Shown piece by piece: positions 9,057 to 9,987 of a stretch of DNA of 51,802 nt. The stretch lies in the sequence record NC_031050.1; one strand, written 5' to 3'. Under the pieces are notes generated by a model that was given only the letters and a program-made list of their open reading frames with translations, ran no database searches and had not been told where the DNA came from. Numbering within the stretch: position 1 is the first letter of the stretch; every line of letters begins with the position of its first letter. Origin of the DNA: Escherichia phage vB_EcoS_NBD2. Made by a program: the position numbers and the translations under genes.

Positions 9057-9262
9057 TGTTCACTCACTTACCGAAGAAGGGCGAAATCATCCGTTGTGAT
9101 TCAGTTGTTGGGGCAGCGCCGTTTATGGTTGGCGTGCAGTACACCGTTGAGCACATCGATCGCAAGTTAGGGCACGTTTACGTATACGGCGACGAGGGTA
9201 ACTTAGAAGCGATCGATTACCCTCATGACGCGTTACACGGAAAGTTTTCAAAAGTTAGTTGA
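9056..9262 (+). CDS. hypothetical protein
   Basis: 68-aa ORF, start overlapping upstream stop. Confidence 0.45.
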   Translation: MFTHLPKKGEIIRCDSVVGAAPFMVGVQYTVEHIDRKLGHVYVYGDEGNLEAIDYPHDALHGKFSKVS

Positions 9263-9358
9263 CGGCATCGGCTCTGATTGGTACATTAGAACCGTAGACG
9301 AAAGAGGCGCTTAGTCGCAACGGGCAGCACGATTGCTGCACTACAATTTACAGCGTCA

Positions 9359-9386
9359 TTGATGGCGCTTTCATTCGGGGCATAGT
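9359..9386 (+). promoter_or_regulatory. candidate promoter for tRNA (TTGATG-16-CATAGT)
   Basis: Hexamers 9359-9364 and 9381-9386, about 38 nt upstream of tRNA 5-prime end. Confidence 0.3.
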
Positions 9387-9423
9387 GGTAAGCCCGCCGT
9401 AGACCCGTAAGCGGCACAAATTC

Positions 9424-9511
9424 GGAAGGATGGCAGAGAGGACGATTGCGCGCGGTTGCTAACCGTGAAGCCGGAAACGGCTCAAGGGTTCGAATCCCTT
9501 TCTTTCCACCA
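9424..9511 (+). tRNA. tRNA-Ser (anticodon GCU), class II with long variable arm, CCA encoded
   Basis: Hand-folded cloverleaf: acceptor GGAAGGA/TCTTTCC (one G-U), U8, D-stem GCAG/TTGC, anticodon stem CGCGG/CCGTG, loop TTGCTAA (U33, GCT, A37), variable arm GCCG-gaaa-CGGC, T-arm AAGGG-TTCGAAT-CCCTT, discriminator A, CCA. Confidence 0.8.
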
Positions 9512-9524
9512 ATCAGAGGGTTAC

Positions 9525-9713
9525 ATGATGGTTTATTCTGTGAAGCTTACGATCCTGTTAATGGGCAGGACTTGCGCATCATGTAAGCAAGAATTCAGTT
9601 GCAGAGTTGAGGCCGAAAGCGAGCAAGACGCAGTGACGAAAGCAAAGGCACTTTCTGGAGCCGATCCAGATTTCAATAAATTTCTCGTTAACTATGTAAG
9701 GGCTAAAAAATGA
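9525..9713 (+). CDS. hypothetical protein
   Basis: ORF 9456..9713 trimmed to ATG 9525/9528 because the upstream part overlaps the tRNA; RBS agaggg. Confidence 0.45.
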   Translation: MMVYSVKLTILLMGRTCASCKQEFSCRVEAESEQDAVTKAKALSGADPDFNKFLVNYVRAKK

Positions 9714-9937
9714 ACGTAGCATTCTTCGTTTTCGGTTTTATCGTGGCGGTTGTCCTGGTGATGTGGCGATCCTTCAAGTGGGTTAAGGCCAAAGCCAGTA
9801 AGGGCGAATATGCCTCTGTTATCTACGATCCAGTAAAGAAAGAGTATCGCGTAACCGGACAGTATGCCGGACTAGCGCAAAAGCTGGCAGATATCAGGGC
9901 AGGCCGACAGCCTGGCGCTATTAAGTACGTTGATTGA
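9710..9937 (+). CDS. small membrane protein
   Basis: N-terminal hydrophobic helix MNVAFFVFGFIVAVVLVMW; followed by intrinsic terminator. Confidence 0.5.
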   Translation: MNVAFFVFGFIVAVVLVMWRSFKWVKAKASKGEYASVIYDPVKKEYRVTGQYAGLAQKLADIRAGRQPGAIKYVD

Positions 9938-9945
9938 TAAACTAA

Positions 9946-9967
9946 CCCGCTTCGGCGGGTTTTTTTA
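9946..9967 (+). terminator. intrinsic terminator (CCCGC-ttcg-GCGGG plus T7)
   Basis: GC stem with UUCG-type tetraloop and T-run 9960-9967 after the early region. Confidence 0.7.
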
Positions 9968-9969
9968 CG

Positions 9970-9987
9970 TCTGCAATCTGGTATAAT
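9970..9987 (+). promoter_or_regulatory. extended -10 promoter TGgTATAAT for late operon
   Basis: TG 9979-9980 and TATAAT 9982-9987, directly after terminator 9946-9967. Confidence 0.5.

Follow-up and report, generated by a model that had tools for sequence, protein, structure and literature searches.

A serine tRNA gene in a recurrent pre-terminase tRNA slot of the T1-like Escherichia phage vB_EcoS_NBD2

Escherichia phage vB_EcoS_NBD2 (sequence record NC_031050.1) carries one tRNA gene, a tRNA-Ser with the anticodon GCU, located between a structured RNA leader and two small genes that precede the terminase operon. The whole stretch of 51,802 nucleotides (nt) is referred to as the window, and all coordinates are those of the window. 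On balance, we regard the gene as a functional phage tRNA-Ser(GCU) gene in a 'tRNA slot' that is fixed among T1-like phages and in which other genera carry a tRNA-Arg. The identity of the gene is confirmed by two independent tRNA calls and a complete cloverleaf; its placement is conserved together with a promoter and a leader whose stems covary among genera. The element itself is as follows.

9424–9511, plus strand: tRNA-Ser(GCU), class II, 88 nt, with discriminator A73 and an encoded CCA end (ARAGORN, Rfam RF00005)

The initial annotation, made from the letters of the sequence, described a class II tRNA-Ser(GCU) with encoded CCA and a complete cloverleaf, the only tRNA to be found, in a T1-like genome. 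ARAGORN run on the window, a check proposed there, gives exactly one tRNA in all 51,802 nt, a tRNA-Ser with anticodon gct at 9424–9511 on the plus strand. Rfam agrees: family RF00005 matches 9424–9508 with 50.6 bits (gathering score 29; E 5.6e-8) over model positions 1–71, the full length of the model, and is the sole Rfam family above threshold in the window. The acceptor stem, GGAAGGA/UCUUUCC in the ARAGORN cloverleaf, consists of seven base pairs (bp) with a single G·U (G5·U68), and the D stem of three Watson-Crick pairs and one G·U (G10-C25, C11-G24, A12-U23 and G13·U22). A 5-bp anticodon stem, also with one G·U, presents the loop UUGCUAA; in the variable arm, a GAAA loop caps a stem of 5 bp, which is flanked by one unpaired base on each side; and the T arm, AAGGG-UUCGAAU-CCCUU, is followed at the 3' end by A73 and the encoded CCA. 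The canonical invariants are all present (U8, A14, G18G19, U33, A37, T54-T55-C56, A58 and C61). It became clear, then, that 9424–9511 is a genuine serine tRNA gene. The genomic setting described in the initial annotation was likewise borne out. Small early-type genes lie on one side of the tRNA and the terminase and late operon on the other, and the close relative Klebsiella phage vB_KM5a1_KLB19, which has a tRNA-Ser annotated at the homologous position, is classified in the genus Vilniusvirus of the Drexlerviridae; the window genome is therefore T1-like.

To define the amino acid identity, the class II tRNAs of E. coli K-12, T4, T5 and related phages were compared with the window tRNA. The pairs G1-C72 and G2-C71 of the acceptor stem and C11-G24 of the D stem are all found in it, the last of which is reportedly a rule for serine. 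The D arm, GCAGAGAGGACGAUUGC, follows the pattern GC.GAG.GG..GA..GC, with G15 paired with C48 and G18G19 in the tRNA-Ser register; it matches E. coli serT and serV position by position, and leuQ and leuZ do not match. Overall, the window tRNA is 64–68% identical to E. coli tRNA-Ser, 52–58% to tRNA-Leu and 60% to tRNA-Tyr. The long variable arm, the major determinant for seryl-tRNA synthetase (SerRS), is present, and both acceptor pairs belong to those conserved in tRNA-Ser (PMC9976931). The discriminator is the one element that departs from this picture. Position 73 (window 9508) is A in the tRNA-Ser of the window, of KLB19 and of Escherichia phage LF82-10, not the G found in 4/4 E. coli tRNA-Ser and in five of the six other phage tRNA-Ser compared (Sf11, phi_KPN_H2, T5 Ser(GCU), T5 Ser(GGA) and T4 Ser; the sixth, T5 Ser(UGA), has U73). 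In E. coli, G73 contributes moderately to serine identity in vivo and serves as an antideterminant against the leucyl- and tyrosyl-tRNA synthetases, LeuRS and TyrRS (Giege and Eriani 2023, PMC9976931). Because G73 is only a moderate determinant there, we file the window tRNA as a putative serine tRNA with an unusual discriminator, and the elements around it make ambiguous charging unlikely. Position 32 (window 9455) is U in all phage tRNA-Ser(GCU) examined, namely the Vilniusvirus-type, Sf11-type and T5 genes, and C in serV.

The position of the gene is shared with unrelated tRNAs of other T1-like phages. ESCO41 (Nouzillyvirus) has a tRNA-Arg(UCU) in the same syntenic slot, before the small genes that precede terS, and phages of the AHS24/Rogue1 type (Rogunavirus) have a tRNA-Arg(CCU) there; each is the only tRNA in the few kilobases (kb) fetched around the locus, at 930–1007 of the ESCO41 piece and 1160–1235 of the AHS24 piece. 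The tRNA begins 8 nt after the last hairpin of the leader (H4, described below) in the window and 10 nt after it in both ESCO41 and AHS24, which places all three in one pre-terminase slot. In the tRNA-less phages the leader runs directly into a ribosome-binding site (RBS) and ATG, and the window tRNA is inserted exactly between the leader's end, ACAAATTC, and the RBS AGAGGG. The slot tRNA-Arg genes differ from the window tRNA-Ser in amino acid, in being class I, in their unrelated sequence and in being commoner: records of a phage collection, sorted by locus type, number 73 for the ESCO41 type, 28 for the AHS24 type and seven for the serine type, the rarest. About 108 of the roughly 835 records that match the adjacent terminase region carry a tRNA at the slot. 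The remark in the initial annotation that a single tRNA is uncommon in a T1-like genome thus stands as regards the minority of carriers, but the feature is recurrent and had already been annotated. The three occupants (Ser-GCU, Arg-UCU and Arg-CCU) all have NCU anticodons and all read AGN codons. By eye, the two slot tRNA-Arg look unrelated to each other. Just after the tRNA-Arg of ESCO41, at about 1010–1115 of the fetched piece, stands an element that resembles a tRNA in its acceptor pairing, CTCGGCG/CGCCGAG, and in its T arm, GCAGG-TTCGATT-CCTGC; it may be a degenerate or unusual tRNA and is called by neither ARAGORN nor Rfam.

In the arrangement of the surrounding signals, the tRNA appears to be part of a separate short unit that comprises a promoter, a structured leader, the tRNA, two small genes and a terminator. 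The elements upstream of the tRNA are listed here.

9259–9287, plus strand: sigma-70-type promoter, −35 TTGACG (9259–9264), 17-nt spacer, extended −10 TGgTACATT (9279–9287) (promoter scan, conservation)
9293–9342, plus strand: first part of the leader, consisting of the conserved CGTAGAC..AAGAG (9293–9306), hairpin H1, AACGG and hairpin H2 (covariation)
9307–9318, plus strand: hairpin H1, GCGC-TTAG-TCGC (covariation)
9324–9339, plus strand: hairpin H2, GCAGCA-CGAT-TGCTGC (covariation)
9352–9369, plus strand: hairpin Hx, AGCGTCA-TTGA-TGGCGCT, which contains TTGATG at 9359–9364 (minimum free energy fold)
9378–9395, plus strand: hairpin H3, GGGC-ATAGTGGTAA-GCCC, which contains CATAGT at 9381–9386 (compensated stem)
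9396–9423, plus strand: hairpin H4, GCCG-TAGACCCGTAAG-CGGC (9396–9415), and the 8-nt spacer ACAAATTC up to the tRNA 5' end (conservation, compensation)

A promoter of the form TTGATG-16-CATAGT had been suggested for the tRNA in the initial annotation. Both hexamers are present, 16 nt apart, with the end of CATAGT 38 nt from the tRNA, but the match (8/12) is at chance level: the window contains 178 sites scoring at least 8/12, or roughly one for every 580 nt of strand, and this one falls below the threshold of the promoter scan. Its putative −10 lies inside the covarying hairpin H3 and its −35 in the loop of the lineage-specific hairpin Hx, and the suggestion was given up. Between 8800 and 10000 only one site passes the scan, that at 9259–9287 (9/12 plus the TG extension). 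When the syntenic gap was compared in ten Drexlerviridae genera, the motif TTGAC-17(±1)-TAnnnT was found in 10/10, mostly TG-extended and at a fixed distance of 43–45 nt from the conserved AAGAG; the spacer sequence varies among the genera while the hexamers persist. This site, 137 nt upstream of the tRNA, is most likely the promoter of the tRNA unit, with a predicted transcription start near 9294.

The leader is about 130 nt long, contains the four hairpins H1–H4, whose stems covary across 6–10 Drexlerviridae genera, and is found in most T1-like phages whether a tRNA is present or not. Its structure is supported by covariation, not by folding energy, the minimum free energy fold of the whole leader being not unusually stable (z = −1.27). 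Across eight genera, 90% of the cells in the H1 and H2 alignment are paired, with compensatory changes in nine of ten pairs and a covariation score of 0.736 versus 0.23 in shuffles (0/500 reach 0.736); slid controls are 15–42% paired. The H1–H2 covariance model finds a single copy in the window, at 69.7 bits with the next best hit at 8 bits, and detects two held-out genera, represented by Ec_L1 (34 bits) and PKP126 (23 bits). The stem of H3 is compensated in LF82-10 (GTGC/GCAC), ESCO41 (AGGC/GCCT) and AHS24 (GAGG/CCTC), and by eye in SH6 (GTTGC/GCAAC), with double changes in three of its four pairs; that of H4 is flipped or compensated in AHS24 and Ec_L1. Taken together, H3 and H4 are 92% paired, with compensatory changes in four pairs. 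Hairpin Hx is restricted to the lineage of the window, KLB19 and the LF82 phages, in which it is an insertion of 17 nt when compared with SH6, IME347 and Ec_L1; LF82-10 has it unchanged, although identity in the coding sequences on either side is only ~80%.

The 78 nt directly 5' of the tRNA show two substitutions relative to LF82-10 and are more conserved than the tRNA or the adjoining genes. Window 9380–9423, which covers most of H3, H4 and the spacer, is 87–91% identical in the tRNA-less T1-like phages listed among its matches, and 78 records match this region in all, including seven with the serine tRNA. Three other explanations of the leader were considered. A minus-strand open reading frame (ORF) at 9286–9417 (43 amino acids) was rejected as the cause of conservation, as LF82-10 has two 1-nt indels in it and the stems covary. 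The idea that H3–H4 are a degenerate tRNA was also rejected: 9263–9423 gives no Rfam match of any kind, tRNA included, even at E <= 10. A role as a put- or Q-type antiterminator for the late operon is weakened, read-through being unneeded because a TATAAT-like −10 of its own follows the terminator directly in each of the nine genera compared. In the genera of Henu7, JLBYU10 and PKP126, a T run comes after the last leader hairpin, and the two together look like an intrinsic terminator or attenuator; the window and Tunavirus have ACAAATTC or AAAAATTC at this place instead.

Downstream of the tRNA, the unit continues with two small genes and ends at a strong terminator in front of the terminase operon.

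9515–9713, plus strand: RBS AGAGGG (9515–9520) and first small gene, with its ATG at 9525 or 9528 and its end at 9713, 62 amino acids (PHROG)
9710–9937, plus strand: second small gene, 75 amino acids, with a hydrophobic N-terminus (ORF list; phrog_5976, E 2e-27)
9944–9966, plus strand: intrinsic terminator AACCCGC-TTCG-GCGGGTT followed by a T run (terminator scan: 7-bp stem, five G-C pairs)
9979–9987, plus strand: extended −10 TGgTATAAT of the late (terminase) operon, outside the tRNA unit, whose boundary it marks (conservation)

From the CCA it is 4 nt to the start of the RBS, and the first small gene begins 14 nt beyond the tRNA. Positions 1–59 of the 60 positions of the phrog_2919 profile (E 2e-29) align to residues 2–60 of this gene, and in the annotation of LF82-10 its homologue starts after the tRNA; for these two reasons ATG 9525 or 9528 is favoured as the start. 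The annotation of KLB19 (MVRG_087) begins the coding sequence at a GTG within the tRNA, equivalent to window 9465, which is probably too far upstream. A hairpin with a T run stands upstream of terS at the same place in 9/9 genera compared, and in all nine a TATAAT-like −10, in most of them with TG upstream, comes directly after it. The start of terS is probably ATG 10022 behind GGAGGGCGGAG, not ATG 9986, the mechanical ORF start, which falls within the −10 of the late operon.

The following course of events is proposed for the tRNA during infection. Host RNA polymerase would initiate at the conserved promoter 9259–9287 and transcribe, in this order, the structured leader of about 130 nt, the tRNA and the two small genes, stopping at the terminator 9944–9966. 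Host RNase P would cut the 5' end of the tRNA, and host nucleases would trim its 3' end to the encoded CCA. Charging by the host SerRS would rely on the long variable arm, G1-C72, G2-C71, C11-G24 and the serine-type D loop, and the charged tRNA would read AGC and AGU. The most likely benefit is that the supply of the AGC/AGU isoacceptor is kept up during infection, rather than that a codon mismatch is corrected. Such a general supply role is proposed because the phage uses AGC more than any other serine codon, its proteome is rich in serine, and K-12 has a single corresponding gene, serV. No other tRNA-Ser(GCU) occurs among the K-12 tRNA-Ser genes that were retrieved, nor, to our knowledge, elsewhere in the E. 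coli K-12 genome.

Codon usage was determined from 84 greedily chosen ORFs, covering 93% of the window, and from a host sample of 42 annotated E. coli K-12 genes. The phage was suspected, already in the initial annotation, of bringing a tRNA that matches its own codon preference, which presupposes that AGC and AGU are used more than in the host, above all in late genes. AGC is indeed the most frequent serine codon of the phage (17.6 per 1000 codons, with AGU at 4.9), and the AGY total, 22.5 versus 18.6 per 1000 in the E. coli sample, is slightly higher because the phage uses more serine overall. As a share of serine codons, however, AGY amounts to 35.8% in the phage, which does not differ significantly from the 37.4% of the host sample (p = 0.53), and it falls to 33.9% in the late genes. 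In terL and the portal gene the share is 0.34 in the window versus 0.27–0.49 in tRNA-less relatives, whose AGY use is equally high. Among the serine codons it is UCA that is over-used (14.0 versus 5.2 per 1000), a codon that cannot be read by a GCU anticodon, and AGC and AGU rank only 18th and 36th in over-use among the 61 codons. The authors of the KLB19 paper also report no correlation of the tRNA with codon or amino-acid usage (PMC11845039). Codon-usage compensation is thus largely refuted, and we consider it very improbable as the reason for the gene. The most over-used codon of all is AAG (37.8 versus 12.0 per 1000). Two arginine codons, AGA (3.3 versus 1.2 per 1000) and AGG (4.1 versus 0.7), are over-used 3–6 times, and the window phage has no tRNA-Arg despite this; the over-use fits the Arg tRNAs of other genera, not the serine tRNA.

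The same serine shares, in the whole phage, in the late genes and in terL plus portal, also weigh against reading the gene as a functional supplier of AGY isoacceptor, and because AGY is not enriched, the supply benefit is unproven. To the same side of the balance belong A73, which takes away a moderate serine determinant and, with it, the antideterminant against LeuRS and TyrRS (PMC9976931); two weakened pairs in the LF82-10 tRNA, A12·C23 and C27·C43; and the fact that most T1-like phages do without a tRNA. The change at position 73 could in principle lead to leucine or ambiguous charging and to mistranslation of AGY codons. A73 is the crucial leucine determinant in E. coli, where G73 keeps LeuRS and TyrRS off tRNA-Ser (PMC9976931), and it is found in both Vilniusvirus-type lineages. 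Leucine identity, however, requires A15-U48 and A20a in addition to A73 (PMC9976931), and the window tRNA has G15-C48, C20a and G18G19 in the serine register, so that A73 is the only one of these elements it possesses; it also has G2-C71, not the C2-G71 of tRNA-Leu, and C35 in place of the U35 that TyrRS requires. A tRNA-Ser lacking G73 can function, since T5 tRNA-Ser(UGA), with U73, is annotated as suppressing effectively once its anticodon is changed. We therefore give mischarging hardly any credence.

Counter-defence, raised in the initial annotation as the replacement of a targeted host tRNA, offers a different rationale: a host tRNA-Ser would be cut or modified by a tRNA-targeting defence or toxin, and the phage tRNA would stand in for it or serve as a decoy, escaping attack by its difference in sequence. 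The window tRNA is 66% identical to serV, from which it differs by U32 versus C32 and A73 versus G73, and a search of 5,426 E. coli genomes at E <= 0.01 gave no match to it; U32 and A73 are nonetheless single differences that may or may not have an effect. Precedents exist: phage tRNAs neutralise PARIS (PMC11464382), and others evade anticodon nucleases through loop changes. In mycobacteria, Ser(GCU) has been proposed as the nuclease-insensitive serine tRNA of their phages (PMC10264068), and MenT3 is a toxin specific to tRNA-Ser (PMC11541572). Among enterobacterial defences, however, we came across none with tRNA-Ser(GCU) as a known target, and UCN codons, which a GCU tRNA cannot rescue, make up 64% of the serine codons of the phage. 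The NCU anticodons common to the three slot types count in favour of the idea, but for the Arg tRNAs among them the scarcity of AGA and AGG in the host is explanation enough. We rate counter-defence as unlikely, though worth keeping in view. A bolder version, in which the slot holds interchangeable cargo at the end of a structured leader that belongs to no Rfam family and has not been described, and the A73/U32 tRNA is a defence-resistant substitute for an attacked host tRNA, strikes us as decidedly unlikely. The tRNA might also serve mainly as an RNA-processing element, cleavage by RNase P and at the 3' end parting the leader from the mRNA and setting its stability or translation, with decoding secondary. 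Its precise insertion between leader and RBS, the latter starting 4 nt after the CCA, and the like placement of the unrelated tRNAs of ESCO41 and AHS24 speak for such a role. Most relatives, though, have the same operon without any tRNA, the anticodon loop and the decoding-related invariants are all conserved, and processing gives no reason why every occupant should be an AGN decoder; we hold this explanation to be improbable. The reading retained here is, on balance, that of a functional tRNA-Ser(GCU) gene carried in the slot.

As a tRNA call, the analysis adds nothing, the tRNA-Ser gene being already annotated in GenBank and published in 2025 for near-identical sister phages. What is gained are corrections and context: a family-conserved promoter 137 nt upstream that, rather than the hexamers first suggested, probably drives the tRNA, a recurrent slot, and the finding that codon bias does not explain the gene. 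A73, moreover, makes this tRNA a simple natural test case for the dependence of E. coli SerRS, LeuRS and tRNA-targeting defences on position 73.

Comparison with known tRNAs defines a series of increasingly distant relatives. Over 1 kb around the tRNA, the window is 98.8% identical to KLB19 and 98.5% to Klebsiella phage vB_KaeD_HazelMika, and the 15 kb of window 1–25000 that align in one piece (from ~9,940) are ~97% identical to both. In KLB19 (PP526029, MVRG_086) and HazelMika (OL539457), both Vilniusvirus, a tRNA-Ser is annotated at the same locus whose 88 nt are 100% identical; nothing of substance differs, the genomes being ~97–99% identical, and the KLB19 paper mentions 'one tRNA for serine' (PMC11845039). 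Escherichia phages LF82-10, -11, -12, -19 and -40 have an annotated tRNA-Ser that is 92% identical and shares the locus, the leader, A73 and the anticodon. The LF82-10 tRNA, whose flanking genes are ~80% identical, differs from that of the window by seven substitutions: A7-U66 is replaced by U7-A66, a compensatory change, G5·U68 and G28·U42 become Watson-Crick pairs, one change lies in a loop, and the pairs 12-23 and 27-43 are weakened. The anticodon loop, the variable arm and the T arm are identical in the two tRNAs.

Outside the Vilniusvirus lineage, the nearest relatives (74–79% identity) are the tRNA-Ser(GCU) genes of the Sf11 type in Cedarrivervirus and similar siphophages of 46–60 kb (IME207, BUCT541, phi_KPN_H2 and others). 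They have in common with the window tRNA the length of 88 nt, the UUGCUAA loop and the GAAA-capped variable arm, and differ from it by G73, by an unrelated genome context and by being usually arrayed with tRNA-Arg(UCU) and tRNA-Met(CAU). Among Cedarrivervirus-type siphophages of 46–61 kb, comprising Sf11 and IMG/VR contigs, tRNA-Ser(GCU) usually stands in a tight array with tRNA-Arg(UCU), which often also holds a tRNA with a CAU anticodon (Met, possibly Ile2). Exact-pattern scans of IMG/VR, JGI metagenomes and GTDB genomes for the Vilniusvirus-type tRNA or leader gave zero matches; a looser tRNA pattern returned Sf11-type tRNAs only, and the H4 pattern one SH6-like contig. The host counterpart, serV of E. 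coli K-12, has the same anticodon, class II form, serine-type D arm, G1-C72 and G2-C71 as the window tRNA. It differs in its length of 93 nt, its G73 and C32 and its longer variable arm, and shares its host tRNA operon with four tRNA-Arg genes. A recent capture from the host was rejected on the strength of the 66% identity to serV and the 0 matches in 5,426 E. coli genomes, and the tRNA of the window appears instead to derive from the phage tRNA pool.

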